This document shows, one piece after another, positions 26,426 to 64,000 of a DNA stretch of 64,000 bases. Under the pieces are notes generated by a model. That model was not told the origin of the DNA. It saw only the letters and a list, made by a program, of their open reading frames with translations, and ran no database searches. Origin of the DNA: Marsupella aquatica (Eukaryota; Plantae; Marchantiophyta); assembly GCA_973895155.1 (NCBI GenBank), contig OZ316894.1, positions 14,399,680 to 14,463,679 on the forward strand, written 5' to 3'. Made by a program: the position numbers and the translations under genes. Numbering within the stretch: the stretch's first letter is position 1; every line of letters begins with the position of its first letter.

Positions 26426-26443
26426 TTGTGGGATGGACGGATC

Positions 26444-29319: not shown

Positions 29320-29389
29320 TTACTCATATACACATGATGGTTAGTAACTCACACGGGCCTGGTGTATTCTGCCCAGGTGCACCCGCACA

Positions 29390-29924
29390 TGTCTTCCGGT
29401 AGATAGGAACTGCGTCCAAAATCGAATGGCCAAACTGGAGAGGATCATGTGCGACATTAAGAGGAGATAGCAATGGCAACTAAGAGAGAACGAGAGAGTT
29501 GGGGTCGAAGCTGGCGTGTGGACTGATGGACTGGTGCACTACAAAGGGTCGGCTCCCTTTTTATACCCTGAGGGTTTGTCGATCACCCGACGTCTCCTCG
29601 TTGCCTATAGGCTGAACCGTTCACACTTGTAGTGTACTGGCCACTCCGCCGGTCTGAGTCAGCGCGTGTCAGTGGCCGCTTCCCTAAGTTTGTTATACAG
29701 ACCAAAGGGAGGGGCCCCTCCACGCTCGCAACCCGGGCGGGCGAATGGCGACACACCACCAGTCCGAACATGAATTCCCCTTATTGACTAATGATTTCCT
29801 ACTCATAATGGTTACCTAAATATTGTCATTATGCTAATAATAGCGGCCTAAGATACCCCTAACACGCATGCTAAGCGCGGTCCAGATTGAATTACTGATT
29901 ACTCGCCATACCGGCGGCGTCACA
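29390..29924 (-). repeat. Truncated 5' LTR (535 bp) of the Gypsy element
   Basis: Direct repeat of 22918-23452 with roughly 30 mismatches, mostly transitions. Contains TATAAAAAG on the minus strand. No PBS is seen after it. Confidence 0.88.
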
Positions 29925-31583: not shown

Positions 31584-32148
31584 TGATTGACGGTGTGCAT
31601 AGCTGCTTCAATTTCAATGAAAGATCCCTTGTCTCCCTTAAAAATTGTACAGAGCACACGAGGATGGTACTTTGGATTCTCGGGGTTCTCCTGTGTAACA
31701 AGCATCCATGAGTACAACCTGTGATTTCCATCAAAGACAGAGAACATCTTATCCTTCAACACGAGAAAATCTGGGTCAGCCTTGCATTCGGCCTCAAACT
31801 TCTCGTTCTCCAATTGCCAGATTGGATCCCAAGTATCACAAATCTCCTGGGTACATGCCAAAAGAATTCCGTTCTCATTCGTTGGTTGCACATAGAAACG
31901 CATTCCTATGGATGAGTTGTAACCAATACTACAAAATGAGTCTTTCAGCTTCTTGATGGAAGAGTTGTCTTTCTGTAATAGCAAACCACCTCCATGTGAA
32001 CCAATCAACATAGGGGGATTTGAGGCAACTCCTTGTCAAATCCATGAGAATCCTTCCCAAAACACATGACATGCTTGGATATGAGATCAGTCTCCGCAAG
32101 CGCTCAATCTGTGACATCCTGGATCGCAAATGTGTCAAGATTCTCCAT
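31584..32148 (-). pseudogene. ParB/Srx-like N-terminal exon of copy A
   Basis: QIPLC*LVHMEVV..LQKDNSSIKKLKDSFCSIGY...FYVQP...VFDGNHRLYSW. This follows the ParB/Srx pattern IP..L...R...I..L..S....G...V.P...DG.HR with an insertion. Confidence 0.75.
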
Positions 32149-39208: not shown

Positions 39209-40849
39209 CTAGAGCGAGGATGACATTAGTCGGGCTGAGGTAGCCATATTCTTCCCCCTTGCCTCCCGCCGCACTTTGTACCAGGCAAGGATGATGGCAA
39301 TGTGACTTCCCAGGTAGGTTCTTCCCCTGATAGACATACCTCCTTGAGCCCGATTAAGCTCCCCCAAGAACCTGCGGTAAAAGAATTGGGCCCAGTTCCG
39401 CCGTTTGTACTGTTCCACCTGTATGATCATACAGAGGGAGATCTCAGATTGTGGCTCAATCATGTGTAGGGTAGTCCGTATGAAGTTAAGCCGCTCCATA
39501 TAGACTAGGCTGGTGCATGACCCTTGCTTGTACCCGGTGTCTGTCTTACCCTCGGGTTTGAAGTGTCGGGGTGTATACTCCTTATCCCAAATTTGGAGTT
39601 CAACCGACACTGGCCCGGTTGGCAAACAAAAGATTTGTGCCAACCGATGCTCCGTAAGTGATAAGGTCTGTCCTGAAACCTTGGTGGTCGCTGCATCAGT
39701 GTCGAAGTTGGAGATGAACTCATAAACCTCCTTTGGCCCGACTGCGCTAGGTCTCCATAGCAAGTGAGCGAACTGCTCCAATTGATGCTCCTTGAGATAG
39801 TCCGCGTGGTCAGGTTTCTTGATTGTCGTCCAGACTACCTCGGGGACGCGGATTACCTGTAATAAGTTAGGCTGTTGATTATCCGAGGGCCATCGGGTCT
39901 GATTGGTCGATGGGTTGGTCGGGTCAGGCGTAGGGGCGGCGTTGGTTCACGTTGTTGGTTCGGGGGCCGGCGTCGTCCTTGCCCGCTTCCAAGAACGTGT
40001 TCAAGCTGCGGACTAACACGCTCAGAACCCAAGGAACACTCAGTGTTGTTCATGGGACGGACTTGGGACCGGTTTGGTGGTACGCTGGTGGTCATTGGCT
40101 GAGGGGCTGGGGGTGGTGTCGGGGTAGCCATATCCCAGTTGAAGGCGTTGGAGCTTTCCCCAAGGAACGTAAGATTGCGCACCGCTTCCCGTTGTCTGCT
40201 GATGTCTTCTTCACTCTTCTTGGCTGCAATCTGCTGGTCAATGTATCCCGGGATTTTGTCGAACTCCGCTGGAGTCAGCCTCTGGCTACCCCTCAGCCTA
40301 AAAAACTTTGCGGGGACTTCAAGAATCGCCTCTGCTAAACCCCTCCTTGCTGATATATAACTCGTTGATGTAGTCACAACTTGTAGCTGGAATCCCTGGT
40401 GATGGCTATCTTCTCACAGTTAACCTGTGCTACCTTAGCCACCAACTTTGCGTACCTTTGTTTGTAAGCGGCTTTCTCGGGGCAAGAATACCAGTAAGTC
40501 TAGGAGAACTTAGCACCTACCTCGCCAAACAAGGTCCAAAATCCCAAGGCTGTAAGGGACATACTAACCTTGTAGTCTGGTTTGTCGAGTCCACGTCCCC
40601 GCTCGGCAATTTTGCTTGCTGGTGGAGGTCATACTCGCCCTAACTAAATTCTGCCACAATCTGCTCTTATCCCTTGATAATTCCCTCGTAAAAGTTAGCT
40701 CAATTTGAGCAAAAGGCGAGAGGGAATGGCCGCGTCCACAAATTCTAAAAGGTATGAATGAGAAAATGGGCCGTGCCACCATTGACTCAGCTCTTATGGG
40801 GGTGCCAGGGTGAGCTGGAGCGTGAGAAGGCAAGGCCATTTTTAGTCAT
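39209..40849 (-). pseudogene. LTR-encoded PMD-like ORF, fragmented
   Basis: Close homologue of 44674-46143: AEAILEVPAKFF.L.GSQRLT and EFISNFDTDA..TKV.GQ.LSLTEHRL.QIFCLPTG. Confidence 0.7.
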
Positions 40850-43800
40850 CGATAATGGCTCAAAGTTGGGTATCTCGGTCCAAGCGTGATCTCCTAACGG
40901 ATTTTTACTCCGCCGCCGCCACCATACCTTGGTCAATTGTAATAATCCCCTTCCTTAATTCATAATCATTCAGTCAACTAACCTACTCCTAATCTATTCA
41001 TAATGGTAAAGATGGCTATTCGTGCTACTCTACGCTACGGCTACGGTCCTAATGACCGTATAAGTCCTAATCTAGGACCCACGTCCAGTTAAGTGACAGG
41101 TTACCCATGTCATAGTATGGGATATCAATATTCGGGACTCTTTAGTTTTGTTGTATTTTAGTTAGCGTCTGGCACTACTCAAATTGTGCCTAATATTTAT
41201 TGCCTTATGGTGAATTGGAGATTTTTCAATGGACCTTTTTGACAGTGTATGAGGGTCTGACATCCAGACTTATCGGAAAAAATGACAAAAAATCATTTAT
41301 GGCGCCAACGGATTCCATGTCGCCTACATTTCTTGTCTTATACAAATGGCTCTTTTAACATAAAGTTCCCAGGTGCAATTGGTATAAGCTCCACATTCTT
41401 GCAAACTTTTCTTTCTCAACAACTTTCAGCCCCCATATTTGTCTTTGATTGTAATGTCTTGGTCTATCGTTCTATCCCGCTTCGGGACTGGGGATATTGT
41501 CACCATCCCCATCCCTTTGGCAGACACGTACAAGCAAGTAGGGGAGAGATACTTTTGCAGAAGATTTGATTTGAACATGAATGACATTGAGTCCATTGTT
41601 TGAGAGGTTGAATCCATTGACGATATCAAAGATGCTACAACGTTCAATGTTGATGATGGTGAACAATTTTGGCATCTTAACGCTGGGATTTTGTACTCAC
41701 TTTGGGTTAGACCACCTGAAGGACTACCAGGTGTCCGCCAGGTTCCATTTGATGTTGTGGAGATTCTTCTAGTGAAGATGGAGATCACACTCCAAGTCCT
41801 TTGTTGAAGTTGAAAGTCCCGCAACATGTTTTCATTAAAGGTGAGACTTCGGGGAGCTCTAACTAGTTGGAGGTTGTGTATCGGCGAAGTGCAATGGACA
41901 CATTGCCCAAATCCACTGGTCATAGCGAGTTGTCAAGGTTCATATCAACGGGTGATTTCAGACATGAGCAAGTCTCTTGTTTGCCAAACAAGTACAACGG
42001 GAACATTGTCTTTGAATTGCCACCCATTGACAAGATGCTCTCAAAAAGGGTCTAGGCTTAGGGACATGGACCATGCCAAAGATTGCTACATTTGGACACG
42101 CATATTTCCAACCACCGCAAACGTGCAGCCAAAAAAACATTGGCAATTTGGTAAGGTTACCTGTACATGGTTTATTGAATGTCGGAACAAGTCCTGCGAG
42201 TACTTCCAAAGGAAGAAGAGGCAAACGCTAAAGCATGGCAGGGTGCTCCAAAGCTTAGTGGTCAATATGTTGTGGGTTCTTTTATTGAAGAGGGAGGTGT
42301 TGTATGTCATTAATGTCAAGCGATTCCATTTTGGTCAAGTACTGCCCTGCTCGCTTGTTTTATATGTACCCGCAAGTATTACTTGATGCAAAAACATGTA
42401 GTCATATGTCCCGCCTAGCAATTCACATAGGTGAGCATAACCATCCAGGTGAAAAACCTTCTCAAGGAGTGTAGAGAAGATGGCTGAGGATTTGATTAAA
42501 AAAAATCATGAAGCCAGTCCTCTTGCAAAACCAACAGGGATCTTGAATTCTGCTACAACGTTGATAGTGAAAGCTCTTTGCAAACATGTTGACGACATGG
42601 TTGATATCAAAGAAACTGAAATTTGGAAGTCTTTGATGGTACTTTCCACTCCCCAAAAGTTTGCATCGCTTTGTCAGAGCGTAAGGATAGACCAAAAGGG
42701 TCGGGGTGAGTTATATTTTCTCTTGCAAATGCAAAAGAGGATTAACCTTTTGTTTCTCCAAAGGTATTTGCTCCTAGGTAGGGTTGTCAAGACGATAGGC
42801 CTCACATCTTCAAAGTGACCGTGAAGGGTCATAGTTCCGGTGTAGATCTTTTGCGGCTGATGCAACCGGGTGGAAGACTCAAAGGAGCCTGGGTGAGTTT
42901 TGATGTCATGCGTTGTGTGACAACCGATTGGTTTAGTTTTAGCACGCACATCTACGACCATAACTTCCGTGCTCTTTGTACAATTTTCACATGCAAGTTG
43001 AAAGGTGAAGACACCAAGTCTTTTGAAAAGGCTTGGAGAGTTATGATAGAGGTTTGCAAGGAAAATGGATTACAGGATGTTGTCATCCAAGGGTTTATGG
43101 CGGACAATGCACAAGCAGGATGGAATGTTGTCCGCAATGTTTTTTTGGGTGGACACCCAGCCCCGGAGTGGGAGCGCTCTGATGCATTTCACTTTTATCA
43201 ATCTTTTCATCAACATTCCAAGGAAGTCCAAGTATTGGAAGAATGTCAATCAGAACATTGGAGGTTGTGGGAGAAACTAAGAAACACTCCAACGTTTGTG
43301 GTGGCGTATCGGGTGTCCCGAGAGATTGTGGTGTGGTGGCAATCAAGAAACTGTGTACCAGGAAAGCTCTTGATGCTACAAAGCTGGATATCCTGGTGGG
43401 TTGTTCGCTAGCGCCAGTGGGGGAATTTTATTTCAATGGTATGATATATATCTCCTCTCTTGTTTGTCATTGTACATCAACTTTAGACTAGCGCCAGGCG
43501 CTGATTTTATTTTCATGTAATTCACACGTTGAAACAATGATTGCAATACATTGAAGCCCATATGTCAATAAATTGCAAGAGTCAGAGATTCAAATTGTAT
43601 TTGACGTTTGTATAACATAATTGTCATTGACAGCGTTGGGCGCTGGTAATAGAATGTCACTTATTGTTGAATTTGTACTATGGCAGAGCAAAAGCGTAGA
43701 AGAAGGTGCCTTGATTCCCAATTGTACAGGGTCATAATCAAGGCATGCCTCTATGAAAGCATGGGCTACGAAGAAAAAGGTTGGTCTTTTTGAAGATTGC

Positions 43801-44410: not shown

Positions 44411-46827
44411 TGTGACACGAGTAACGTGTCACTTAACCGAACCCAGGTCATAGATTAGGTCTTATACGGACGTTAGGACCGTAGCCGTAGCGTAGAATAG
44501 CACATATAGCCGTCCGTTGCCATTATGAATAGATTAGGAGTAGGTTAAGATGACCGAATAATTACGAGTTCAGGAAGAGGATTATTACGCGCGACCACGG
44601 TATGGTGGCTGCAGCGGAGTAAAAATCAGTTAGAAGTCACGCTTGGACCGAGGCGCCGACTTCAGCTCATTCAATGACCAAAATGGCCTGGCCTTCTCAC
44701 GCTCGGGCTCATCTTGGCACCTCCATAAGAGAGGAGCCGATGGCGCTGCGGGCCATTTTCTCATTTCCACCTTTTTGGAATTCGCGGACATTGCCATCCA
44801 CTCGCCTTTCTGATCGAATCAAGTCGACCTTTACAAGGAGATTATCGAGGGATAAGAGCGGAATATGGCAAGATTTAGTCAGGACGAGCGAGACCTCCAC
44901 AAGTAAAGGACCAACCGAGGGGGAACGTGGACTCAACGGACCGGACTACGAGGTTAGTATGACCCTTACAGCCTTGGGATTTTGGACCTTGTTTGGCGAG
45001 GTAGGTGCTAAGTTCTCCGAGACTTATTGGTACTCTTGCCCCGAGAAAGCCGCTTACGAACAAAGATATGCGAAGCTGGTGACCAAGGTAGCACTGGTTA
45101 ATTGCGAAAGGACAGCCATCACCAGGGATTCCAGCTACAACGAGCTGCGAGACTACATCACCGAACTATATCTCAGCGAGGAAGGGCTTAGATCGGTAGC
45201 AGAGGCAATTCTTGAAGTCCCAGCGAAGTTCTTTAAGCTGAAGGGCAGCCAGCGGCTTACTCAAGCGGAGTTCGACAAGATTCCGGGGTACCTAGACCAG
45301 CAGATCGCAGCCAAAAAGCGCCAAGAAGACATCAGCAGACAACGGGAAGCGGCGCATAATCTTACGTTCCTTGGGGAAAGCTCCAACGCCTTCAACTGGG
45401 ATATGGCTACCCCGATACCACCAGTGCCTCAGCCGATGACCATCGGCGTACCGCCAAACCGGTCCCAAGTCCGTCCAGTGATCAACACAGAGTGTTCTTT
45501 AGGTTCCAAGCAAGTTAGTCCGCAACTCGAACAGCGTTCTCGTAAGCAGCCAAGGACGACGATGGCCCCCGAATCAACAACGCAAACCAACGCCGCTCCT
45601 GCACCTGCCCCGGCGAACCCCCCGGCCAACCAGAACCGACGGCCCCCGGATAACCCGAAGTCCAACTTATTACAGATAATCCGTGTCCCCGAAGTAGTCT
45701 GGATCGCGATCAAGAAACTTGAACACGCGGACTATCTCAAGGAGCATCAGTTGGAGTAGTTTGCTCACTTGCTATGGAGGCCGTGCGCCACCGGGCCAAA
45801 GGAAATTTGTGAGTTCATCTCCAATTTTGACACTGACGCATCGGCCACCAAGGTTTTGGGGCAGGCCTTATCACTCACGGAGCATCGGTTAACGCAAATC
45901 TTCTGTCTGCCAACCGGGCCGGTGCCGGTTGAACTCCGAATTTGGGATAAGGAGTATATGCCGTGGCACTTCAAACCCGAGGGTAAGACGGACAACGGAT
46001 ACAAGCAGGGGTCGTGCACCAACTTAATCTGCATGGAGCGTCTTAACTTCATACGTCTTAACTTCATACGGATCATTGAGCCACGATCCGAGATTTCCCT
46101 CTGCACGATCGTGCAGGTGGAACAGTACAAATGGCGGAACTAGGCCCAATTCTTCTACCAAAGATTCTCGGGGGAGCTGAAGCGGGCTCAGGGTGGTATG
46201 GCTATTGGGGGGAAGGCTTAGTTATCTTAGTAGAAGATAGGTGAGGCACGGGGAGTCCCGGCCTGAGCAGGGTCAGAGCGCACCAAGGAGTGAGAGCCAG
46301 AGTCGAGCTTGCTGGGCAAGTGCGAGGCAGGGTCTCGTAGAGACTGGGCATCGACTGCCATTGGGCCTGCTAACCCCCTTTGAAGTCGAGTCAACCATGT
46401 AAACTGATGCTTCGCTGAGTAAATGTAGTCTTTTCCCTCTAATGTTTCCGCAAGTAACTGGTGTTGTGAGTATGCTTTGTCTGGGCAAAGGCACCATTTT
46501 AAGGGACGTACCGGGTGCAGACTAATGGTAGGGATTGCCACCCATTGTATGTCACAAGGTTCTTTCGCGTCGATGGCTTGAAAAGCCCCAAGCCAGGAGT
46601 TAGTCCGAGTCACTAACTAAGGGAGGATTCCAGCGGTGGAAGATAAAAGATACCTATGACTAGTACAAATTGCTTAAGCGTTATACCAGTAAGTATAGCG
46701 GCTTAGCCCGACTTAGGGCTAATCGGAGCCACTACACACCTCCTTGCCCGAACCCTCACCCCTACTGGTGGTCGAGGTCGCACCATGGCACTAAACTGGA
46801 TTTAAGGCCCAGGTTAGGGACGCGACA
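44411..46827 (+). mobile_element. Solo-LTR-like unit with an internal deletion, same family as 32973-41114
   Basis: TGTGACAC...CGCGACA termini; TSD CCAGT at 44406-44410 and 46828-46832. Confidence 0.9.
44674..46143 (+). pseudogene. LTR-encoded PMD-like ORF (361 aa open, then TAG, continuing in frame)
   Basis: ORFs 44674-45759 and 45769-46143 are in one frame and are homologous to the other LTR ORFs. Confidence 0.7.
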
Positions 46828-48878: not shown

Positions 48879-51800
48879 TGTTGTGGGAGAAATGAGACAA
48901 AGAGTTAGTTCCATCTTTACTCTTGGTAGAATATGTACATGTGGCTATGGCCTAAGTAGTTAGGGTAGTTACATAGGTAGTTATCCCAAAGGTAGACTTA
49001 ACTCAAGTATGAGTTACAACACTCCCCCTTTGTAACATTGGGGTTGAAATGTTACAATCAAGAGTCTACTTTGGGTATATTCAGTGGTATACAATAGGTT
49101 TTGTTTATGTCTAGCCTATTTTATAAATGGTGTAGCCATCTCAAGTCTACTATAAATGAATGTCAAGCTTCTCCTAATAGATGTCTTATAATTCATGTTG
49201 CATGGTAGAGTGTAAGTGGGCACGGGGCTTTTATGTGTAGTAGGCACCCTTGGGAAAAATATCTCCCCCTGAATTTATGAAATTAATTGGTGGAAGTAAT
49301 CATCATTTGTCGCCATGTAGGTTCTGTAATTTAGTTTCTTTCTTTATGTCCTTACTTCATGCCTTGTTGTTTGGTTTTTCTTGCCTTTTGAAGAGAAAGT
49401 CTCTTTGTTCTTTAGTTCTCCATTACTTAGTGTAAAATGGTCTTCTTAGAAGAAAATGTGGAGGACTTTCCTTTGGTTTGATGGCTTCTCTTTGTTTGCC
49501 TCCTTTGCCCGGCGTCTCGTCTGTAGCCTATACCACGATCTCCGTCTGCATTGGACGTCCTTCTCTCTCCTGGCGTTCCTCGCGTTCTCTCTTTGGTTTT
49601 TCGGGTTTGTGCTTCCTTCAATGTTCTTGGATTTATCCTCCTTGCCTTTGGTGCTTATTGTTTCTCCTCTGTCTCGCATTCTTTCCTTCAAAGTTTTCTC
49701 CCTTCGCGTTTGATATGTTCGCGATGCTGCCTGCCTTGCTCACGATCTGCGTTCGATTTCTGTAGTGTCTTCTCTCCTCTTATCTTTTCAATTGGGAATT
49801 AGGCGTAACTATGGGTGTTCCTTATGAATCAAGCTTCCGTATGGGGTCGCCTTCACGGACTGGAAGTAGGAGGTCTGATGACTCGTTCCAAAACTTGTTC
49901 CAAAATGCAGATGCGTCAGTATAACCACGTATCATCTTGGCAAATGCCCAGTGTGCCTCACTTGGCCCCCAAAACCAAAACATTTTGCGCCTGTCGAGAG
50001 AGCTTCACAAATATGATTGACGGAAACTTCCCTACATGTCGTCGATCTTGAATGACGGAGCATGCTTCATCTTGTTATCGAATTGTAACGTAACGGTTAG
50101 TTCCATGCTTTGCCCAGTGCTCCTTCAAATCGATAGGATAATTTACATTTATCCCTTCGGAGCCGAGTTGTTCCAAAAAGTTCATGGAGATCATAGTGGT
50201 GCAACGCGAGGACTGCCAGCCCCCGTTACCCCATCTGTAACACTGCTGTCTCACACCTATACAGGAGCAGTGGGGAATGGGGTATCGCACATTATCAACG
50301 TCGTGAACATCATCGTTTGGGCCCTTCAGGTAATCGGCCTCGTCGCTATCTCCAAGCTCCAAATGATGCTCCTGGGGAGAACGACATGATCTTTTCGAAC
50401 GCACTGTGCGATCGAGCGTAGATTTCACTATTAGCTTCCTCTTCCTAGGAAACCCACAAACTGACTCTTTTGGCGTCGCCGATCTTGCCAAGGTCACTTT
50501 GCTCTTGAACAACAGCACTGTACCGTGTGGAAGACAAGGGAGCCTAATGAAAAACTCCTACAATAGTACAATTCTTTTCATACTCAGCGGATGGAAGAGC
50601 TTTGAATCTTTCACCGATGGCCTCTTTTGGACAAGGGTGTTTTGTTCGCTGAAATATCAAGAGCTGTAACAGCAGCATCGCGTTCCTCCATGGCGGAATC
50701 TCGATCAGCGTAAGCTACATCACGTAGCAGAAGAGCAGCGTCTCTCTCCTCATATGCAACTATTCTCTCCGTGATAGCCGAATTTTTCTCCAAGATAGCT
50801 GCATCCCGTGCGGGCTATCATTGGCTATCGAGCGAGGCCTGCCCCTATGAGGTTGCGATGTCCTAATCGAATTCTTCTTTCTGCTTTTTGATCGTCTTCT
50901 CTCTATTGCTGTTGTCTTGCTCTTCTTATCCTTTTCACCCTGGAGGGGGATGCTGCTTTTCAGGATCGGTTACTCTCGAAGGGCGAAGGACTCATCAATG
51001 ACTGACGAAGAATGTAATCTTGTGATCCTCGGTTGGGGATAGACTTCCGTTCTGTTCTACTTTCTTCTTGAGTTCTCTTCGAATCTTCTAAGAAAAATTT
51101 CCTTATCTCCTGCTATCCTTACGAGTTCCTTATGGAATTGAGGCTGTGATCTGTGCCTTGGATTGGTTTGCTTGTGTGATGATCTCGCTGCCTGAAGTGG
51201 AGGTCGCTACTTTCTATGGTCTGCAAGTCGCGACTTTCTTCACTTGCCTCTTTTCGCACTTCTTACGCGATTGCTCCAAATCCTTCTTTCGTTTTCCAGT
51301 GATGCGACCAACGGGTTTAATTTCCCCATGTTTGTCCTGCTTTTCTGTCAGCATAGTGTCGGGAAAGCGTAGTGTCGGGAAAGAAATCACAACATCCTGT
51401 TACTGCTTCGTCCATTTCGAATGCCTCCAGCGGTAGACTCGAGTAGAACTGGAAGCAAACACAGGAAACAGAGTAGGTTGTCGTACTCCAATCTGTTGTG
51501 CGCTCATGACCAGCCGTCAGTGAGCTGGTGTTCGCTAGAAATGTTATCAATCAAAGATGTAGTTGGTGTGAGGGTCTTGCTCGCCAGGGAATGAGAAAAC
51601 ACCTTGGCCACCAACTTCCGACTCCTCGAAATGGCTGGAGTTCCAATCGCTGGCTCATTTCCAGATTCGTGAGCGCGTCAACAACACTGGCTCTGACTGA
51701 CTGTTGCTGTTGCCTTACTGCTGTACCAACTTGAAAAGCGTGCACCGAATAAGATGGCGCCTTGATATTCAATTCACCATAGCCGGGATCAATTCTTCCT

Positions 51801-52106: not shown

Positions 52107-53737
52107 GGTAGTACATTTTACAAAGTGACTTTTGGAAGGAATGAGAGCCTTCAATTTTGACTTTTGGAAGGAATCCATAAGAGAATTCAATTCATTCATT
52201 GAGTTTCTTGTGCAATGAGATTACCACAAAATGGGATAAGCAATAAAGCTCAATAAACCTACGACAACTAGGAGAGAACAAAGGATCAGCAAAGAGATAT
52301 TTTATTTTCATTTTTAAATAATTTTACACTTTTAGAAAACATCTTTTGCAAAACATCATCTTACTTGCAAATGATATCTATTATGCAACATCTTTTCCTA
52401 AAATTACATATTTTGTGCAATGACATCTTTTGTGAATAAAATTTTCTGTGCAACGCAGAACTAGTAAAATCTAAAAGACATGTCAATTGACATTCAAATT
52501 TTGTTATGGTACAATGAATTGAAAACCAGATTATGAATACAATCAAAATCAAATATGCACATCTTAATGAATTGTTATTTTATTCATCTACAAGAACTTA
52601 ATAATGAATATATGTTTAGTATATTTTTTAGACTTGTAATTACATTTTTCTTAGTGTATGTGAAACTATTTAGGCAGAGATATGATTCACCACTCTCTGC
52701 ATCTCAAGATTGAATGGGGTATTAGGGCATCTCAAAACCAGGCAGATTCCCAACTTTTAGGCTCATCACTTTATTGCGGTGCAGATTGTATACCCTCAAA
52801 GTGTGGTTGACCGAGTTAAACCCTAAACCAATAGAAATTCATAAAATCATGATCTTGTTACTCACCCATCTCTCAATGAAGCCTTTTGTGCTAAACACTT
52901 AGAAGAAAGGGTATAACCACCGTGACAGCAAATAGTAAATAGATTTGCTGTTACCAGCAAATATTCTGCTCACTCAAATAATCTATTCTACAAGTCCGTT
53001 TGATACTTCCTATCAAGTAAGTAGCGTACTTCATCCATGGTGAGAATTGGCTGACTTGATAATGTCAACTCATGCAGATCCAACTTCAAAACATTCTTGT
53101 ACACCCGATACAAATTAATGTTAGCAAGGCATATAGGGTTTCCTGTAAGTGTGCCAACAGTAAATAGTCCTCACATGAGCAACACGGGAAACAACAAATC
53201 TGAACGCAATAAGAGGCCACCAATCCCTCATTTTCATATGTCTAGATACAATTATACTACTTCCCCATGCATTCTTGCTAGTGATATCTCTCTTGCATGC
53301 GAGTCTCATGATTTCTTTTTTGGATGCTTTGATTTTCTTGTAATGTGTTTGAGTTATAATTCACTCTTTGCAAGCACTTCCTCCCATTCTTGTAGGGCAT
53401 TGCAAAGTTGGGTCCATTAAACTGATTCACTCTTGGAAAAAATTACATCAATGCACAACTCCGACGAGGATGGTTCTATCTTCAACTCTTTCTCCACTCC
53501 CTCCTATGAATATGACTCCTAGATTGTTGTGTCAAGAATTGGATAATTGCCTTCATGTTGGTCACTCTAGCAATCAAAAGACTAGACAAAACATTTGGGA
53601 ATGTTTGAAACTTCTTTCCTCGGTCTGCTTTGTGTGACACTTGTTATTTGGCCAAAACCATATCTGATCCGAAAGAGAGGGGAGGTAATCCATCAGTTAT
53701 CAGTCACTGATATCAGTCACCCCTTTTTTTTTCTCTA

Positions 53738-54162
53738 ATCTCGGAGACCTCTCCGAGATGGCGACAGTTTTTTTGGCAATCTCGGAGAGCTCTCTGAGAT
53801 CCCTACCATTTTTTTGGCAATCTCGGAGACCTCTCCGAGATGGCAACAATTGTTTTTGGCAATCTCGGAGAGGCTCTCCGAGATCCCAACACACTTCCAG
53901 GAGTATGTTGGAGACATGGTAGTTTGTTTGCTCACCATGTCAGAGAGCCTCTCCGACATACCAATTCACTCCATTGCCATCTCGGAGAGCCTCTCCGAGA
54001 TACCAAGTCTTTTTGTTGACCATCTTGGAGAGCCTCTCCGAGATACCAAGTCACTTTGCAAACCATCTCGGAGAGCCTCTCTGAGATACCAAGTCACTTT
54101 GCAGACCATCATCGACTTTCCCATTCCATTTCTAAGACCATCTCAAAGAGCCTCTCCGACAT
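53738..54162. repeat. Cluster of about 9 ATCTCGGAGAGSCTCTCCGAGAT palindromes at roughly 41-43 bp spacing
   Basis: A perfect copy lies at 53979-54001; the others differ mainly at the CpG positions. Confidence 0.9.
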
Positions 54163-54285
54163 ACAAATACAAAAAATTTGCAAGTGATACACATCACATT
54201 CACTTTTCATATATATTATAATGTGTACACAGCAACACTTCATCATTGCTACCTTCTCTAAAGCTAACCCCTGTTGGCCACTACT

Positions 54286-55073
54286 TTATTCTGTTATCTG
54301 ATATGTGCACAGGTCATAAATAATCTTCTTTCGCAAGTTTCCTACCTGGCTGCCATCAAAATCCATAGGAGCATCTCGACTTATGCGCTCTGCATAGTTA
54401 AGGATAAATACCCCACAATTTACACTATCTTCTTGTGATGCAAGGCCTGACACTAAAGTTCTAGGCCAGTTGTTTGCATCTGGTGAGGGCATGCCTCTTT
54501 GACTTGCTTCATCCTCGACATACCTTGTTAGAGTATACATGAGATACTCATTTCGAGCCTCCCAAAAGTTTCCTGATTTCTCCCAAGCGAATCTAGGAAC
54601 AACACCTCTTTTCCAGTTAAATCAATCACTGCCAACACCCAATGCTCCCTGTTTGCCTGGTGGATAGGGACCAATATCCTGTCATAATCAAATATGTTTT
54701 CTGTTTTGGTCCATCGAGCAACATTGGCAAAACAGTATACGGGCGTTGAGAGCAACGTGTAGAATGCTGTGATGAAAAATGCACACTTTGGATAGCCTCT
54801 TGATCTCCCCCTAAACTGCAACAAGGCCAAGTATGCATCGATGATATCTGAATGTAGCCATTGAGCTCCTGTTCTTCCTTCAGACAAGCATCTCATTGAC
54901 GCCCTGGTCAACTTGTAATCTACAAAGTTGAATAGTACTTCCTTGTCTGGGAGCTCTGTGGATAGACATGTGGATACTATGTCGGAAAAGTCTTGAGAGC
55001 AGACTACTTCAGCAAATAACCCAGGTATCTGGGTATTCCCACCACGTGCTGGATAGGATTGAACAGCATGGCA
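54286..55073 (-). pseudogene. Ulp1/SENP-type cysteine protease domain (Peptidase C48), one frameshift
   Basis: WLHSDIIDAYL, FFITAFY, VARWTK..NIFDYDRILVPIH, EHWVLAVID, FLDSLG, QEDSVNCGVF (His-Asp-Cys triad present). Confidence 0.93.
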
Positions 55074-56140
55074 TTAGGCATCATCTTCATCTGAGCTATA
55101 GGTCACAAAAGAAGGGTGAGCTATCTTATCACTATCACTGCTGACACTCTCACTTTCATTGTAGTCTACCTCTACTGCTCTATCATCTACAAATCTTGAT
55201 TTTCGCCTCTTTGTGTACTTCTCAGCTACACCCTTGAGCCGTTTGAAGGGGCGTGAATCAACAATCCCTTCTGCGTAAGTTGGAAGGCAAAATCTTTCTG
55301 GAGAGAAAGTTTTTGATGCTTCCTCCCATGCTTCACGGACTTTGTCCTTGTCCGATGTGTGCCATTGTTCGGACTCGATGTTCCTGTAGTGAACTGCCTA
55401 TTGGTTAAGTAGACAGTTTAAGGTAATACCATAATAATGTGGAACTTCACATTTTTATTTATCCTCACCATGGCACAATGTAAATTGCAAACTAACAACA
55501 AATGGGTTCTTGGATTCAACGTTTACTCACAATCCTGAGCATTCCCACCCTTGCCTTCTGCGGCATCCTCCTCTGAATCAGACTCAAGGACAAGCTTCTT
55601 CCACCCTTCAGGCTTCTTAGTCTCCTTGGCCTCCTCCTTCTTACTCTCCTTGCCCTCCGCCTTGGTCTGATTGCCCTGCTGTGTTGAAAGGAGTTTTGAC
55701 ACCACCGAAGCTGCTGACTCACCAAAGTAGTCATGCGCTTCCATCCCAAATACTAGTCGCCCACAATTATTGGCAGCTTTGTAGATAGCACCAAAGTGGA
55801 CATTCCAAGAAAATATGATATCGCCGGGACTGGTGATGTGCTCTATGATGCATTGCAAGGTTGCAGGCGATAAGGTTCCGGCCAATTCATCTCTCATTGC
55901 ATCATCTTCCTTTGTAAAATTGGATAGAGCATTGCTCTTTCTTGGGCACAAATCACCAGTAATTTGCTTCATATGTACCTTTGGGAGGGTCACCTCTGTA
56001 CCCTTCATGGCGAATATATCCAAATGCAGATATTGAGCCTGTCACATCATGCAAAATAGATTTGCACTTGTTAGCAACACTGGCAACACTAATTGCTAAA
56101 CTAATCCGACATCGGTCCTACCTCTCTAAACCCTAAAAAT

Positions 56141-56878
56141 CCTACCTATCTCAGAGAGGCTCTCCGAGATCCATGCTACCTATCTCAGAGAGGCTCTCCA
56201 AGATGGATCCTACCTATCTCAGAGAGGCTCTCCGAGATCCATGCTACCTATCTTAGAGAGGCTCTCCAAGATGGATCCTACCTATCTCAGAAAGGCTCTC
56301 TGAGATCCATGCTACCTATCTCAGAGAGGCTCTCCTAGATCCATGCTACCTATCGCAGAGAGGCTCTCCAAGATGGATCCTACCTATCTCAGAGAGGCTC
56401 TCCGAGATCCATGCTACCTATCTCAGAGAGGCTCTCCGAGATCCATGCTACCTATCTCAGAGAGGCTCTCTGAGATCCATGCTACCTATCTCAGATAGGC
56501 TCTCCGAGATCCTACCTATCTCAGATAGGCTCTCCGAGATCCTACCTATCTCAGAGAGGCTCTCCTAGATCCATGCTACCTATCTCAGAGAGGCTCTCCA
56601 AGATGGATCCTACCTATCTCAGAGAGGCTCTCCGAGATCCATGCTACCTATCTCAGAGAGGCTCTCCGAGATGGATCCTACCTATCTCAGAGAGGCTCTC
56701 CGAGATCCATGCTACCTAACTCAGAGAGGCTCTCCGAGATGGATCCTACCTATCTCAGAGAGGCTCTCCAAGATGGATCCTACCTATCTCAGAGAGGCTC
56801 TCCGAGATCCATGCTACCTATCTCAGAGAGGCTCTCCGAGATGGATCCTACCTATCTCAGAGAGCCTCTCCGAGATCA
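56141..56878. repeat. Intronic tandem array of about 22 units of 34 bp built on the palindrome (ctacctatctcagagaggctctccgagatccatg / ...aagatggatc)
   Basis: Directly visible. It lies in the intron that splits the MTase-like domain of copy B (56999-56039). Confidence 0.95.
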
Positions 56879-59365
56879 ATGTTACCCATAAGGGAGAGGG
56901 TGTCCGACATCGTAATTGCGGACATATTTTTCAACTATCTCGGAGAGCCTCTCCGAGATGACTTCTATTGAAATGCCAAAATTGAAGTGAACTTCTAACT
57001 TTTTTGCTTGACGCCATGTAGCAAGGTGTGTCATTCCAAATGGTGAATGAGTCAATGTGATCCAACTTCTCAGCCCAGTCAATGTGAAGGTACTCAAAGA
57101 TTGAGCGTGTGTGGGCAAATGAACCACTGTGCACAATGCACAAGAAACCGTCGTTTGTGAGTAGAGAGTCTGCCAATGTCGTTGCCACTTCTAGGTCACT
57201 GAGCCGAAATCTATTCCACACCGGAACATTATTTTCAGCCTGCGCTATGCGATAATCTGTCCCTAGCTGAACAAAGATCATATCACAACCATGGCCCTTA
57301 GGTACACCATCAACTATCCAACCTTGTTTTCACAAGCCAGCCAACTTCAATTTCTTACACCAGTCCCGGAATTCCCTCATGAATGGAGGGAGAGGCAACT
57401 TTCCCGTGGTTGGCTGATATTTGTCCTTCAGCCAAGAAGAACACTCTAGTAAGGTCATATGCTCTTTTGCATGGCAAAATTGCAGGGCAGATGTAATAGC
57501 ATGAGAGGGCCGAGGTACTCCAAGAATTTTGCAAAGATCATCCTCCGGAATTTCTGGGGCTTCTGTTGAAACTGGCTTCTTTGTGGGTTCGTCTATCCTC
57601 TTGTCGGCTTTCTTCTTTGGCCGACTGGTTGGCTTACCAGAGATTTGTGGTTTGCTTGGGGTCCCACTCGGGGTCCCGCTTGGGGTTGAAAGGTCAGGCT
57701 CCTCCTCCTCCTCATGGCCCTCTGAATTGTCCCCGGTGGCCATCCCATCCTCCTCTCCATTGTCCCACTCGCCGCTTTCTCATCCTCCTCTCCATTTCCC
57801 CACTCACCGCTTTCTCATCCTCCTCTCCATTGTCCCCGGTCTTTCTTGGCTCCATCTTCTCATCCATCGGACGACATTTGCTTGAGGTAGACCCTGGGGT
57901 TCCAAACTTTTCCTTACTTTTTTCTGCAGAACAAAGTAAGGAGTTTAGTTATCATTTTACAATGATACTATCTCGGAGAGGCTCTCAAACATATGTTAGA
58001 TGTACAATGCAAGCTAGGGTGTAAACCTTACCAGGAGTGCCTTGTTCTGAGGTGGTGTCTTCTGATTCCTTTTCTTTCTTCCCCCGAACCTTCTTCCCAT
58101 CATATTTTGGCTCTCCAAGAGGCAAAATGGCCTCCAAGTCCAATGCAACCTTTGTCGACAGCTCAAGATCTCCCAACTTTGAAGGTGCAAAAAGGTTGTC
58201 TGGTAGTTTCCCCTCCTTTAGGAGGTTGGCAGCTTCCTTCTCTTCGGGCGTAATGAACTCATTCCAATCATTGAACTCCATGAACCATGGACAATTTTGT
58301 CTCTCCCAGTCTGAAAAGACTCTTGCTGCTGGCTTCAGCCCATCTGTTGGATACATTGACAGCGGGCCTTTCTCCGTCATCCATGCAGTCAGAGCACTTG
58401 GTAACACTTTGAAAGTAGAGGCTCCAATGCTCTCCTGATGAAGTAAATATCTGACCACACACCTCTTTGCACGCTTCCTCCACACATCTTTGCTTTGCTT
58501 TGCTGGATTCCACATCTTCTTGCCCTCCTCATAGGACCGAGTCTGTACAAATTGCTTGTACATCTTGTTGTGAAACTCAACAAACTCGTCTTTGCTTCCA
58601 TTGAAGTTCTGCCACTCACCAGAATCATATGCACTCTTGGTAAACTCTGACATTATCAAACTGCCAACATGGGCAATGTAACACCACATTGACCACACTA
58701 GCAACCAAGCTCTCACTGCTGAATCACCATATACATCTGGATGGTGGTGTCGCTTCTTCTCCTCCGCGGTTGAAAAATGAACGCGGAGTAACTTGTTTCG
58801 ACACTCAGCAGGCATCACCGCACTTGCAAACAATTTAACTCGATCCAACCCCACTTGCACTTATGGCTGATCTTTCTGTTTACTCTGCAACTGGTGCAGC
58901 TCCTCGGCAATCTCCATAAACTCCTCTCCATTGCTGGATTGACAATCTGAGCAAACTTCTGCATTTTGCCCTCCCAAGACCTACAAGCTTCACTCGTCAT
59001 GAGTGCGGTTTCCTTTTGGAACTTATCCAAACTCCAGGCATGGCCAATTGCAACATCGGCTGCCATCTCCTTCGCAAGACGAATCCTCCCGTCTTCAATA
59101 TTATTCCACGACATGATGTACACAGCAACATCCTTTGTCATGCACTTGCTATACCATGTCTTTCCATGCCCATGGCTTCTTGCTGCTAAGAATCTAGCAT
59201 AACCATCCGGATGAAGCAATGTCTGATACTCCTCCAAAGGTGCCATCAACAGCTTCTTCACCCTGTCTGCATCGGTCAACCAAGATGTCTGCACAACGTT
59301 TGCGCTTATCCTGCATAAAGAAGCGACAAATGTTGGCGTCAAAGGCTTCATACCTGAAAATTACA

Positions 59366-59570
59366 TCTCTCTTGGAGATGCTCTCCGAGAAGGCATGGAC
59401 ATCTCGGAGAGGCTCTCTGAGAAGGCATCGCTCTCCAAGAAGGCACTGATATCTCGGAGAGGCTCTCCGAGAAGGGAAGGTTTATCTCGAAGAGCCTCTC
59501 CGAGGTAGCATTTTGAGAGCCAAACATTGTATGTGTGTATGTATCTATCTCGGAGAGCCTCTCCGAGATA
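59366..59570. repeat. About 5 palindrome copies inside intron 1 of copy B
   Basis: For example atctcggagaggctctccgaga at 59451 and atctcggagagcctctccgagat near 59547. Confidence 0.88.
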
Positions 59571-60339
59571 GGATTGCCTATGTGGGTGCAAAAAAACAAC
59601 AAATGCAAGAACAACCAAAAACCAAGGGGGCGGAAACTTACGCGTTGAGGCCGTGCATTGCCTGCTCAATCTTCCTGAATCCTTGTTTTCTAGGCTGTAG
59701 AAGAGAGAATCTCACGCAAGGGTGGTACTTCTGCTCGTCAGGATACTCTTCAGCCACTTGTCTCCATGCATTCAGGCGATGATTTCCATCAAACACCCAA
59801 AACATCTTACCCTTCAAAACGTGAAACTCCTCGTACTCATCACACTCCATCTCAAATTTTGCGTTAGCTTGTTCCCATAGAGGGTCCCAATCCGCGGAAA
59901 ATTCAAACATGGAGTGGGTGGCGTTATGCGCATTGGTCTCTGATATGTGGAATTCCAAAAACTTGTCCACATACCCATTCTTCACGAAGTCCTTCTTCAT
60001 CTTCAGAATGGAGCTCTGTTGGAGAGTCCGAACTGCCTCCATTGTCATCAACGACATAGTGGAATCCGAGGTGGCTCTCTGGGCTTCCCACTTGGTTCAG
60101 CTCCAAATGAAAGCAAGTACTCCCCAACAATCCCTTCGAATGCACCTTTGTTCAGACGTTCAGCAGACACATTTTCAAAGTTCAGAACCTTCGGCTCCAG
60201 CTTCTTCACTGTGTGAGTTTCCCGACCACTGGCGGTGCTCTCTGCTATCTTTGATCTGGTCTGCCGACCAGACGATGAAGGAGAGGGAGTGGGTTGCTTC
60301 CTCTTCCCTGTCATTTTCAAATCTCACCAACTACTGAAT

Positions 60340-60740
60340 TGCACGAGCACAACTTGCACAACACTTGCACCACCCACAGCTCAGTCGCAGCAAGCTCAAT
60401 CACACCGCTCGCACAGCACTCGCACTCGCACCGCCACAGCTCACCGCACTCAATCGCACCGCCACAGCTCAGTCGCAGCAAGCTCAATCACTGGCAGTGG
60501 CACAACACTCAATCACACTGCTCGCACAACACTCGCACTCGACCGCCATAGCTCACCACACTCAATCGCACCGCTTCCAGCACTCGCACCACCACAACTC
60601 AGTCGCAGCAAGCTCAATCGCACCACTTGCACAGCACTCAATCGCACCGCACAACTACTCGCACTCACAATCGCACTCAATCGCACCGCACTCACAATCG
60701 CACTGCTTCCAGCACTCGCACCACCACAGCTCATAGCACA
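60340..60740. repeat. Imperfect short repeats (cactcaatcgcaccgc; cagctcagtcgcagcaagctcaatc) upstream of copy B
   Basis: Repeated C/A-rich words. The overlapping ORFs here are low-complexity artefacts. Confidence 0.75.
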
Positions 60741-61365
60741 CAGAGCGCGGAGAGGGAAAGATCACAAAGCAACTTACGCTCTCCAAGAAATATGAGGTAA
60801 ATTGCATCCGCACTCGCACTCGCTCGGCCTCAATTGCTCGCCTTTCAAATGAGGAAAGGCGAGAGATGGCGGGGACTCACCAAAGTAGTCATCATCATTA
60901 TTAGGCAACGGAAGATCTAGGGGCATCACAACTGACTTCACTATCGCCGTCATGCAGGTTGAGTCCCATCCAAACAACGGGAGATCTATGGGACCACTCA
61001 TTGATTACAAGTGGTAGGGGCCACGGGAGGAAGTTGACATGTTAGTAGTTTATTGGCTTATATGTTGTCGTACTCTGATAATGATGAATGGCTAGATTTG
61101 ACTCATGTCAGAGTCGCAACACTGAAGTACCTGTACAGATGCTTTCATTATTACTACCCCTTCACGCCATAATGTCCTTGGTACGATTGATTCCAGACCA
61201 GATAAGATTTCCTATCATTCCTTGGTATTAATGAGTACGATCGTTGAATGACTGGATTTAATTCCAAAAAATATTCAGTACTTGCACGACATGTCAGGCC
61301 AGTCTCAAGTTCCAGATTGTCTCCGAGATATGTCACGCCCCCATGTCAGATAAGCTCTCCACTCT

Positions 61366-61672
61366 GACATGTAAAGTGGGGACGTAAGTCGGAGAGGCTC
61401 TCCAAGATGACATGTAAAGTGGGGACGTAAGTCGGAGAGCCTCTCCGAGATGACATGTAAAGTGGGGACGTAAGTTGAAGAGGCTCTCCGAGTTGACATG
61501 TAAAGTGGGGACGTAAGTCGGAGAGGCTCTCCGAGATGACATGTAAAGTGGGGACGTAAGTCGGAGAGGCTCTCCGAGTTGACATGTAAAGTGGGGACGT
61601 AAGTCGGAGAGGCTCTTCGAGATGACATGTAAAGTGGGGACATAAGTCGGAGAGGCTCTTCGAGATGACATG
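61366..61672. repeat. Tandem array of 7 units of 43 bp, each with one palindrome
   Basis: gacatgtaaagtggggacgtaagtcggagaggctctccgagat starts at 61366, 61409, 61452, 61495, 61538, 61581 and 61624. Confidence 0.95.
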
Positions 61673-61824
61673 TCATGGAGGACCCATGTCAGAGCCTCTC
61701 CAAAATTGAATATTACACAAGATCAGACCTTGGAGAGGCTCTCCGAGATGACATATCAGGTTGGTGATAACTTTGGAGAGCCTCTCTAACAAATATTGGG
61801 CCTAATCCTTGCTACACACCTAAA

Positions 61825-62477
61825 GATGGCATCTCGGAGAGCCTCTCCAACATCCCTAAACCCTTCATACCTGCGCAAGATGGTATCTCGGAGAGCCTCT
61901 CCAACATGGGTCAAGGCTACATACCTCCGCAAGATGGCATCTCGGAGAGCCTCTCCAAGATGAAACTTGGTGAGATCCGGTGCAAGATCTAATCTCGGAG
62001 AGCCTCTCCAAGATGGGTCGAGGCCTCATACCTGCGTAAGATGGCATGTCGGAGAGCCTCTCCAAGATGAAACTTGGTGAGATCCGGTGCAAGATCTAAT
62101 CTCGGAGAGCCTCTCCAAGATGGGTAGAGGCCTCATACCTCCGCAAGATGGCATGTCAAAGAGCCTCTCCAAGATGAAACTTGGTGAGATCCGGTGCAAG
62201 ATCTAATCTCGGAGAGCCTCTCCAAGATGGGTTGAGGCCTCATACCTGCGCAAGATGGCATGTCGGAGAGCCTCTCCAAGATGAAACTTGGTGAGATCCG
62301 GTGCAAGATCTAATCTCGGAGAGCCTCTCCAAGATGGGTTGAGGCCTCATACCTGCGCAAGATGGCATGTCGGAGAGCCTCTCCAAGATGAAACTTGGTG
62401 AGATCCGGTGCAAGATCTAATCTCAGAGAGCCTCTCTAACATGGGTCGAGGCTTCCAAATGGCATCTGAGAGAGCCT
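61825..62477. repeat. Tandem array of about 5 units of 107 bp, each with two palindromes
   Basis: gaaacttggtgagatccggtgcaagatctaatctcggagagcctctccaag recurs at 61962, 62069, 62176, 62283 and 62390. Confidence 0.93.
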
Positions 62478-62544: not shown

Positions 62545-62836
62545 TAACAGTTTTCACGCTCACAAGGGTGCGTTGTCAAGAAGGATTCTTACATATTCAA
62601 CGAGGGAAGAATATTGTAACAATTTTTACGCTCAGTCTGGGCGATAAGGTACTCTGACAAAACAATCTTGACATATTCAACAAAGAAAGAAGCGAGTCTA
62701 ACAATTTTTACGCTCTGTCTAGGCGGTAAGGTACTCTGACAAAACAATCTTGACATTCAACAAAGAAAGAAGCGAGTGTAACAGGTTTTACGCTCGGTCT
62801 GGGCGATACGGTACTCTGACAAAACAATCTTCACAT
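62545..62836. repeat. Tandem repeat of about 80 bp (3-4 copies) upstream of copy C
   Basis: aaca.ttttacgctc.gtct.ggcg.ta.ggtactctgacaaaacaatcttgaca..ttcaacaaagaaagaagcgagt is repeated. Confidence 0.85.
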
Positions 62837-62933
62837 ATTAGTATACACCCATCGCGTCACTCGATCGACTACGTCCCTGTCGACTTCCGAAGCTGAATCT
62901 GCATAGCCCTTCCCGAGGTCGAGGAGAGGGAGA

Positions 62934-64000
62934 ATGGACCCTAAGGACGTCTCCATGGGTGAAGTCAGTGACATAGGCTTATCGATGGACGAGGTAATAT
63001 CAAAGCACGCATTGTCATTCGGGATGGATTTTTGAGGATTCGATAAGGAGCCACCTCGAATTCCTCTTTGTAGATTGCTCCCCATGGAGGTTGTTCGAAC
63101 CTTACAGAAAGAAAGTGCATCGATCGAGAAGTTGAAAGAATCATTCCGTGTCACCGGGTACAACTCGCGCATTGGGATGCCTTTCTACGTTCAGCCTGCG
63201 AATGCCTATGGGGTTTCTCAGATATGCACCAGCGAGATCCGAGACTCTTGGGATCCAATCTGGGTCGCAGAGAACGACAAGTTTGAGGAAGAGTGTGATA
63301 CGGACCCAGCGTTCCATATTCTAAAAGATAATATGTTTTGGTTGTTTGACGGAAATCATCGATTGTACTCGTGGTCAATCGTCATGAGGGAGAATCCGGA
63401 CAACTTGAAGTATCATCCTCGTGTGATTTGCGTCATTTTCAATGGTGACAGAGGTTCGCTAGTTGAGCTCGAGGTGGCAATGCACACCGTGAACCAGTAA
63501 GTTCTATTCGTTAACTGTTGTTACCCCTGTCATTCATTTTGGACCAAACATGCTTTGCGAAAGTGTTCATTCCCCAATTTTTGCTAGCGCCCAGCGCTAC
63601 TAATTCCTTTTCATTGCATCCAAGCTTGGACAAGCAGTCGTTGAGCCTTCTTGGATTCTTGACGCGGACAGAATTTCCTGAATTCTGTCGCATGATCTTG
63701 ATCACTATAAGCCACTCATCGACAGCGCGAACATGGCAAAGTTTGAGGCGATCCGAAAGAAGACGAGAAAGGGGTCTTGGTTTACACATAAAATGCCACA
63801 GGATGCTCTCATCTACATTCTGTGTGTGGACAAAATCAAGTCTTACTCAAATCAATTTAAGTCTGATATGGCTTTAGCCAAAGCTCAAGGGGCTTCTTGG
63901 TCAGAAGAGGAGACCACAAAGAGGCATGAGGCAATGATGAAGGAGGCGACCAAAGATTGGTCGATCAAAGTGACGAAGATCACCCCTTTACTTCATCCGG
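62934..64000 (+). pseudogene. ParB/Srx-like gene copy C (A subfamily), running off the window end
   Basis: MDPKD...SFGMDF*GFDKEPPRIPLCRLLPMEVVRTLQ...LFDGNHRLYSW...AMHTVNQ; intron 63497-63623 (acceptor appears mutated AG to AA); exon 2 LGQAVVEPSWILDADRI...KGSWFTHKMPQDALIYILC is nearly collinear with copy A. Confidence 0.8.

Follow-up and report, generated by a model that had tools for sequence, protein, structure and literature searches.

A 23-bp palindrome arrayed in the introns and flanks of a ParB/Srx-fold gene in a repeated liverwort DNA unit: candidate binding sites for the unit's own protein

The 64-kb stretch of DNA from the liverwort Marsupella aquatica analysed here (assembly GCA_973895155.1, contig OZ316894.1, forward-strand positions 14,399,680 to 14,463,679; 64,000 nucleotides, hereafter the window) contains a gene, gene B or copy B, that is flanked on both sides and filled in its introns by copies of a 23-bp palindrome. 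The gene, which is on the minus strand, extends from about 60323 to 54286, all coordinates being positions in the window, and its product combines a domain of predicted ParB/Srx fold with helical, DNA-methylase-like and Ulp1 protease regions. The arrangement raises the question of what the palindromes are for, and whether the protein of the gene that they surround could be the one that reads them. A preliminary description of this DNA had pictured a parS-like loading array for the ParB-like protein; we found that the locus is not of the bacterial partition type but a repeated, transposon-like unit in plant nuclear DNA. We propose the palindromes as candidate binding sites for the element family's own ParB-fold accessory protein, a tentative reading that we rank first and hold at slightly less than an even chance.

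The palindrome was searched for as the 23-bp sequence ATCTCGGAGAGSCTCTCCGAGAT, as its half-site CTCTCCGAGAT and as the 11-nt core GAGAGSCTCTC. Exact matches to ATCTCGGAGAGSCTCTCCGAGAT numbered four in the window; allowing up to 3 mismatches gave 51 (100 shuffles gave 0) and allowing up to 5 substitutions gave 55, which together with three 22-nt forms without one central base makes a total of 58. All 58 copies were located between 53738 and 62442 and the remainder of the 64 kb had none, which bears out the roughly 60 copies reported before in and around gene B. The core was matched 46 times, the full set within 53868-62436, and the half-site, at no more than one mismatch, 96 times (94 of them in 53.7-62.5 kb). 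No half-site match was detected within the stop-to-stop coding pieces of gene B, and the exons are indeed free of palindromes, as had been claimed. Palindromes had also been assigned to three introns; the one at 59.35-59.64 kb was confirmed, since the homologue P0005 reads across the junction, and the placement of the other two follows from the endpoints of homology to the homologue P0046. The palindrome was missing from both A/C-type paralogues of the gene in the window (30-32 kb and 63-64 kb). A search of metagenome contigs with the exact 23-mer returned 1 match, which lay in coding DNA that is GC-rich and bacterial-looking and has the core only once; this match was taken as chance.

The copies lie in six arrays, the periods of which were obtained with Tandem Repeats Finder. 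Downstream of the gene B stop are array L1 (53738-53884; period 41, detected over 53737-53891), with three 22-nt variants and one full 23-mer, and array L2 (53927-54162; period 43, detected over 53927-54110), with 5 palindromes that have C as the central base. Within the gene, an intron array at 56142-56959 (period 34; 22 copies of the unit over 56142-56886) contains 23 palindromes, with G at the centre of 21 of them. The next intron has a lone degenerate palindrome with 3 mismatches at 57970-57992, and the intron confirmed by P0005 has an array of 5 palindromes at 59369-59569 (periods 50/33, detected over 59380-59501). Upstream of the gene, array R1 (61365-61749; period 43, 7.2 copies over 61365-61673) contains 8 palindromes, 7 of them with central G, and is inverted with respect to L2, while array R2 (61776-62452; period 107, detected over 61885-62452) contains 12 palindromes, two per unit, with central C. 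The periods of 34, about 42, 43 and 107 bp given in the preliminary description were broadly reproduced, except that 'about 42' proved to be 41. The spacers differ across arrays, but its statement that the repeat units are unrelated does not hold for all of them, as L2 and R1 share the period of 43 bp. These two arrays have opposite central bases (C versus G) and their spacers share a 9-nt match in inverted orientation (uncorrected p ~0.04). Among the 30 comparisons of spacers between arrays three pairs reached uncorrected p values of 0.03-0.04, and a kinship of spacer sequences is suggestive for L2/R1 only. A 130-bp C/A-rich tandem repeat (2.1 copies, 60454-60733), free of palindromes, was observed between the start of gene B and the upstream arrays.

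Across these six arrays, with periods of 34-107 bp, the only common element was the palindrome, and the view that the palindrome and not the repeat unit is conserved was thereby upheld. Its invariant part is formed by the inner 10 bases, AGAG-S-CTCTC (positions 8-17), each of which was changed in 0-3 of 55 copies, and its most variable positions are two CpG steps. Where pairs of arm positions were changed, 7 were still complementary and 88 were not, which argues against a selected hairpin and fits a duplex site that is read as two halves. The same ratio bears on the explanation that the arrays are a source of double-stranded RNA, in which transcribed arrays would fold on themselves or pair with each other and feed or decoy small-RNA silencing. 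A 204-nt piece of the intron array on the gene strand did fold more stably than its shuffles (-99.8 kcal/mol versus -77.8 ± 4.7, z -4.7), as this explanation would have it. Nevertheless, we consider such a role improbable given how seldom arm changes were compensated, the presence of the motif also in arrays outside the transcribed gene body, and the finding that no Rfam family reached its gathering score in 53-63 kb.

The invariant core GAGAG-S-CTCTC also calls to mind host factors. Plants possess GAGA-binding factors, and BPC proteins of this type, for example, might recognise the GAGAG/CTCTC core and bring in Polycomb-type silencing. A piece of a GAGA_bind (BPC-type) gene, a protein family that reads GA/CT runs, was found at 50075-50557 on the minus strand (E 1e-33), in low-copy DNA immediately to the left of the element; it could be counted in favour of host factors, although its position near the GAGAG-S-CTCTC arrays is probably a coincidence. 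Against such factors, the GA runs are only 5 nt long and the conserved motif reaches beyond them, and this is the explanation to which we assign the smallest likelihood.

The number of copies of the locus was assessed in four public sequencing runs (X1-X4), which come from two organisms and two studies and each of which contained about half or more of the words of the stretch. Contigs that matched a 9.2-kb region at 90-100% identity numbered 666 in X1, 1082 in X2, 3188 in X3 and 1864 in X4. The summed depth over the gene exceeded that of exact flank contigs 11-44-fold in X1, 11-36-fold in X2, 26-88-fold in X3 and 23-66-fold in X4; summed depth does not equal copy number, as the tool warns, and the result is therefore stated as tens of copies. 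The unit as a whole, with its exons, belongs to a repeat family that has roughly tens of copies in the four runs. The left edge of the repeated DNA lies approximately at 53676-53706, where the single-copy contigs of the flank end: exact left-flank contigs stop at 53705 in X1, 53706 in X2, 53703 in X4 and 53669 in X3, and past the edge coverage is provided by hundreds of short variant contigs. A contig at 56832-57102 that joins the 34-bp array to the next exon was present at about 9 times single-copy depth in X1. Palindromes and gene thus occur together in many copies, a trivial linkage given that both belong to a single repeated unit. The length of the arrays varies between copies, with joints that skip 78, 230, 600 or 629 bases. 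The DNA from 62.7 kb to the end of the window, which holds paralogue C, is also repeated, and on the right the unit may extend past the end of the window.

In the local copy gene B is a pseudogene. Its reading frame is broken by at least two frameshifts, to which a third can probably be added, and by a single in-frame stop. The N-terminal coding piece (60048-60323, minus strand) is out of frame with the next piece, and alignment A1 and translation indicate that one base is missing near 60049 in comparison with homologues. In other copies an extra base was detected behind 60049, with depths of 155.5/346.3 in X1, 1110.7/2505.5 in X2, 2811.4/4237.2 in X3 and 397.5/735.7 in X4. A second frameshift is located near 58.93 kb and the in-frame stop near 58.86 kb. 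Furthermore, the two Ulp1 pieces overlap at 54528-54621 in different frames, and an extra base behind 54584 was found in other copies, at all of the depth in X1 and X2 and part of it in X3 and X4; the overlap is probably the third frameshift.

Gene B belongs to a family that an exhaustive search resolved into 177 cluster representatives at E≤0.001. Among the representatives looked up the hosts were liverworts and ferns, and the sole named close homologue is from a liverwort. Longer relatives were from another liverwort and from ferns; in the 20 longest members scanned a Pfam domain was found in one only (a phosphatase), and a homologue search restricted to longer proteins found none. The homologue P0046, with 1191 aa, and the copy B exons are collinear, the homology stopping at residue 275 of the 291-aa piece at 57985-58860.

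The domain with the DGNHR motif (59638-60096, minus strand) was delimited by alignment, profile searches, a predicted structure and structure searches. An AlphaFold model of the DGNHR exon from an 87-sequence alignment had a pLDDT of 88.5 and a pTM of 0.80. When this model was compared with known structures by VIA-align, the top 12 of 23 matches all had the ParB/Srx fold; KorB was the best, with a Z of 7.2, which is in the range that the tool calls middling, and an rmsd of 2.7 over 89 residues, and it was followed by PadC (Z 5.7), a serine kinase (5.5), sulfiredoxin (5.4), the N-terminal domain of pNOB8 ParB (4.9) and Spo0J (3.4). The top rows of a Foldseek search were likewise ParB, sulfiredoxin, Noc and KorB, with a probability of up to 0.97. 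We therefore assign the ParB/Srx fold to this N-terminal domain with moderate confidence, as a property of the model. The earlier designation of the protein as ParB-like is sound with regard to this fold (pLDDT 88.5, KorB Z 7.2), but not with regard to the Pfam ParBc family, to which there was no match, nor to the motif, which is DGNHR and not GERRxRA.

The motif merits a closer description. In the model, residues D103-G-N-H-R107 follow the strand 99-103 and open the helix 105-117, i.e. they occupy the position of the GxxR pocket at a strand-to-helix turn. D, G, N, H and R were invariant in all 8 closest sequences, and G, N and H were kept in at least 90% of the 87. The caveat, raised at the outset, that DGNHR differs from the GERRxRA of CTPase clamps holds, and DGNHR belongs to the Srx/DGQHR type of motif. 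No ParB-related protein was retrieved when the sequences of the PDB were searched with profiles A1 and A2. The NCBIfam model TIGR03187 (DGQHR/DndB) matched 5 of 8 sequences at E 0.001-0.07, with 12.8-18.8 bits as against a cut-off of 58.85, and the nearest ESM Atlas clusters of the domain were DndB-like (0.92). These weak DGQHR matches and DndB-like neighbours place the domain nearer to the DGQHR/DndB branch than to ParB proper.

The model of P0046 is confident over residues 133-710 and consists of the ParB/Srx domain and then helices. The helical middle region corresponds in gene B to two coding pieces at 57985-59360 (minus strand), for which the confident model of P0046 residues 311-700 is all-helical. 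The N-terminal part of pNOB8 ParB could be superimposed on P0046 (135-515) over 219 residues, N-domain and following helices together, at a middling Z of 6.6 and an rmsd of 4.5, and the helix-turn-helix (HTH) of CENP-B matched P0046 at a Z of 4.8, also in the middling range of the tool. The models thus give a hint of a ParB-like two-domain head that may include an HTH. The ESM Atlas likens the middle region to integrase core-binding domains (0.90-0.95, the recognition being below the mark), and no integrase core-binding structure was among the 50 structure matches listed for P0046. Its fold places the protein of gene B within ParB/Srx, but the protein is not a canonical ParB.

These results allow us to weigh whether the protein is a true clamp of the ParB/parS type, which would hold a nucleotide at the GxxR pocket, load at the palindromes and slide or spread from them as ParB and KorB do. 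The ParB/Srx fold, the first place of KorB among the structure matches, the glycine at the strand-to-helix turn, joined there by the arginine in the 8 closest sequences, and the clustering of palindromes with a central S would all suit such a protein. The DGNHR motif in place of GERRxRA, the lack of any match to Pfam ParBc and the family matches, which, weak as they are, favour the DGQHR/DndB branch, do not, and on this balance a true clamp seems improbable.

Behind the helical region lies a beta-class DNA-methylase-like domain in two halves. The N-terminal half (56965-57329, minus strand) was recognised by blastp to P0046 residues 927-1030 and its motif IV position is, by eye, degenerate; the C-terminal half (55523-56041, minus strand) has a degenerate motif I region and matched CcrM (6pbd) at E 1.9. 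Profile matches of the copy B piece were of the order of E 0.11 (NCBIfam CcrM) and E 0.19 (PRK13699). The window paralogue at 19081-19539 matched PF01555 at E 0.021, and three Riccia homologues, P0155, P0157 and P0158, matched it at E 9e-06 to 5e-05, with scores of 26.2, 24.8 and 23.7 bits that lie under the cut-off of 26.7 and that all concern the motif I region. A pattern search of P0157, P0155 and P0158 for the catalytic (D/N/S)PP(Y/F/W/H) found none, and copy B differs from it by eye. In the P0046 model the pLDDT is <50 over the methylase-like part, and a homologue search with the methylase-like piece returned one 98-aa fragment. The three proteins, from Riccia sorocarpa, carry the UniRef name 'Trimethylguanosine synthase', while Pfam sees in them a near-threshold N6_N4 DNA-methylase alone, so that the name seems to claim too much. 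Prokaryotic-type N4-cytosine methylases that are active have been reported from liverworts.

The gene ends with a Ulp1 (peptidase C48) domain in two coding pieces (54286-55073, minus strand), which matched PF02902 at E 7.6e-16 and 8.1e-06, with 59.0 and 26.3 bits, above the cut-off of 20.7. Its His, Asp and Cys were recognised by eye. This is the sole Pfam-recognised domain in gene B and it is present in the B type of the family, i.e. in one branch.

How the palindromes would act as binding sites can be set out as follows. A dimeric protein made from intact copies would read the two half-sites of the palindrome, and the density of the arrays would give specificity for its own element, as motif density does for the VANC21 protein on VANDAL21 elements of Arabidopsis. 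Binding through the ParB fold would bring the methylase-like and Ulp1 protease domains onto the DNA of the element, where the tethered domains might act on its chromatin, e.g. by stripping silencing factors of SUMO. The arrays themselves may expand and contract by slippage or unequal exchange. The observations behind this reading are that the motif is kept while spacers and periods differ, that it occupies introns and flanks, that it belongs to one branch of the family and that the arrays are of unstable length. The likeness of this pattern to the VANC21 motif, together with precedents from the algal PAG3 gene, brown-algal transposon genes and bacterial DndB (all compared below), is the reason why binding sites were ranked first.

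Several of our results weigh against binding by an accessory protein of the element. The A/C-type paralogues are multi-copy without the palindrome (depth over 62.7-64 kb), and therefore the family does not need it. The local gene is incapable of giving a full protein, and binding would therefore have to come from other copies. CpG transitions account for 55 of the 103 palindrome mismatches, with entire arrays sharing a decayed CpG, so that the outer half-site positions are weakly held in the local copy; moreover, the palindromes counted within an array are non-independent events. With regard to the protein, the structural match to KorB is middling, Foldseek gave no row at E≤0.001 (best E 0.13), Pfam ParBc (PF02195) had no match even at E≤10 in the three window copies and four homologues, and there is no more than a hint of an HTH. 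As to the element, no transposase family was found in the window ORFs scanned, including the neighbouring ORFs at 41.4-47.6 kb; a comparison of the left edge with candidate right ends for terminal inverted repeats gave unconvincing matches of 7-16 nt only; and no target-site duplication was found. Because transposase, termini and target-site duplication were not found, the term transposon draws only on copy number and context.

Some of these points are what would be expected from neutral satellite growth, in which slippage or unequal exchange multiplies a palindrome unit that no protein reads and the arrays are young or homogenised. Decayed CpGs common to whole arrays, array lengths that differ among copies, the pseudogene state of the local copy and the multiplication of paralogues that have no palindrome would all be accounted for. 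Against neutral growth, the inner 10 bases are the same in six arrays of differing period and spacer, and a second lineage in which ParB-like transposon genes are paired with tandem inverted repeats has been described. We consider neutral growth unlikely, but the most serious of the alternatives to binding sites.

If tethering by the accessory protein is true, it would constitute a second, independent route to element-specific anti-silencing of the VANDAL/VANC kind. A bolder form of the idea is that a phage- or plasmid-derived ParB/parS module is still working in transposons of liverworts and ferns, with nucleotide-gated loading and spreading, and with a SUMO protease and a dead methylase serving as a reader to strip silencing. 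We think this improbable; if true, it would mean that eukaryotes use ParB/parS at the level of chromatin to counter silencing. The binding-site reading itself extends to land plants a proposal that two recent papers made without test for ParB-like accessory proteins of algal transposons, and it makes the proposal directly testable by naming a concrete candidate site, namely a palindrome of 23 bp that is invariant in its central 10 bp and present in some 58 copies. The locus also brings to notice an unnamed plant family that combines a ParB/Srx domain with a methylase-like domain and, in one branch, a SUMO protease.

Other features of the window, which contains intron-split genes, were recorded as well. 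Copy C, the second A-type paralogue, lies at 62997-64000 on the plus strand and is oriented head to head with respect to copy B. An 80-bp tandem repeat of its own is present at 62617-62839; copy C has no palindromes and is multi-copy in the four runs. The other A-type paralogue (30249-32082 and 19036-20147, minus strand) is about 40% identical to the gene in the DGNHR domain, and its methylase-like exons continue at 19-20 kb. It seems to be split by an LTR retrotransposon at 22918-29937, where paired 550-bp repeats (22918-23467 and 29390-29937, 93%) flank reverse-transcriptase- and integrase-like ORFs. The A-type methylase-like exons are followed downstream by tandem duplications at 15946-16572 (312 bp, 98%) and 17288-17559 (124 bp). 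A 1.8-kb inverted duplication (82%) with paralogous ORFs occupies 39324-41112 and 44413-46211, and the ORFs between its arms (41.8-44.4 kb) matched no Pfam family. The summed depth at 44.7-46.7 kb was the highest of the 20 kb examined, several hundred times that of the flank contigs in X1, and the duplicated region at 39-46 kb looks like another, much more abundant element.

How does the locus compare with known systems? KorB and ParB of bacterial plasmids and chromosomes bind palindromic sites near their own genes; they are CTP-gated clamps with GERRxRA and an HTH and are partnered with ParA or KorA. The pairs KorB/OB and ParB/parS provide the best structural match to the N-domain (KorB Z 7.2-7.5). 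DndB, which has the DGQHR motif, binds palindromes in its own promoter (PMC4507180). It is similar to the present protein in the type of motif (DGQHR versus DGNHR), with weak TIGR03187 matches in 5 of 8 sequences; unlike our transposon-type protein, DndB is a repressor of a bacterial operon, and the TIGR03187 scores are far below the cut-off.

In the literature as far as it was available, no description of the plant family or of liverwort arrays of this kind was found, and the supplements of the algal papers may list motifs. Two algal cases are closest in architecture. Transposons of brown algae carry accessory genes in which a ParB-like domain is followed by an N4C/N6A-type DNA methylase, and the order of a ParB-like and then a methylase-type domain in a transposon-carried gene is the same here. 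Unlike in the brown-algal methylase, no (D/N/S)PP(Y/F/W/H) was detected in the three Riccia members, nor by eye in copy B; the B type adds Ulp1, and the available passages on the brown-algal genes mention no palindrome arrays. In the red alga Bostrychia moritziana, the Plavaka gene PAG3 encodes a ParB-like N-terminal domain and a 2OG oxygenase and has tandem inverted-repeat arrays beside it, and its authors propose that the protein binds and modifies its own element (bioRxiv 10.1101/2025.02.11.637652). The two systems have in common that an effector is joined to a ParB-like N-domain, that inverted repeats in tandem array lie beside the gene and that the whole is part of a repeated element. Unlike PAG3, with its 2OG oxygenase and known Plavaka transposase, the present unit has methylase-like and Ulp1 domains, is in a land plant, and showed no transposase; its arrays also fill introns, PAG3 being compared by its description only.

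A likeness in the placement of the motif is offered by Arabidopsis. VANC21 binds a 9-bp motif that is arrayed in introns and upstream regions of VANDAL21 but not in exons, the array size varies between copies, and motif density gives specificity (PMC5735166). Our locus has in common with VANDAL21/VANC21 a tandem motif in introns and upstream regions that is absent from exons and forms arrays of variable size; this likeness is a functional one only. The VANC21 motif is a 9-bp non-palindrome in one orientation in a Mutator-like element, whereas the motif here is a 23-bp palindrome. To our knowledge, VANC proteins do not have a ParB fold. What is new in the present case is the land-plant host, the combination of a methylase-like domain that has no catalytic motif with a SUMO protease as effectors, and a sharply defined candidate site.

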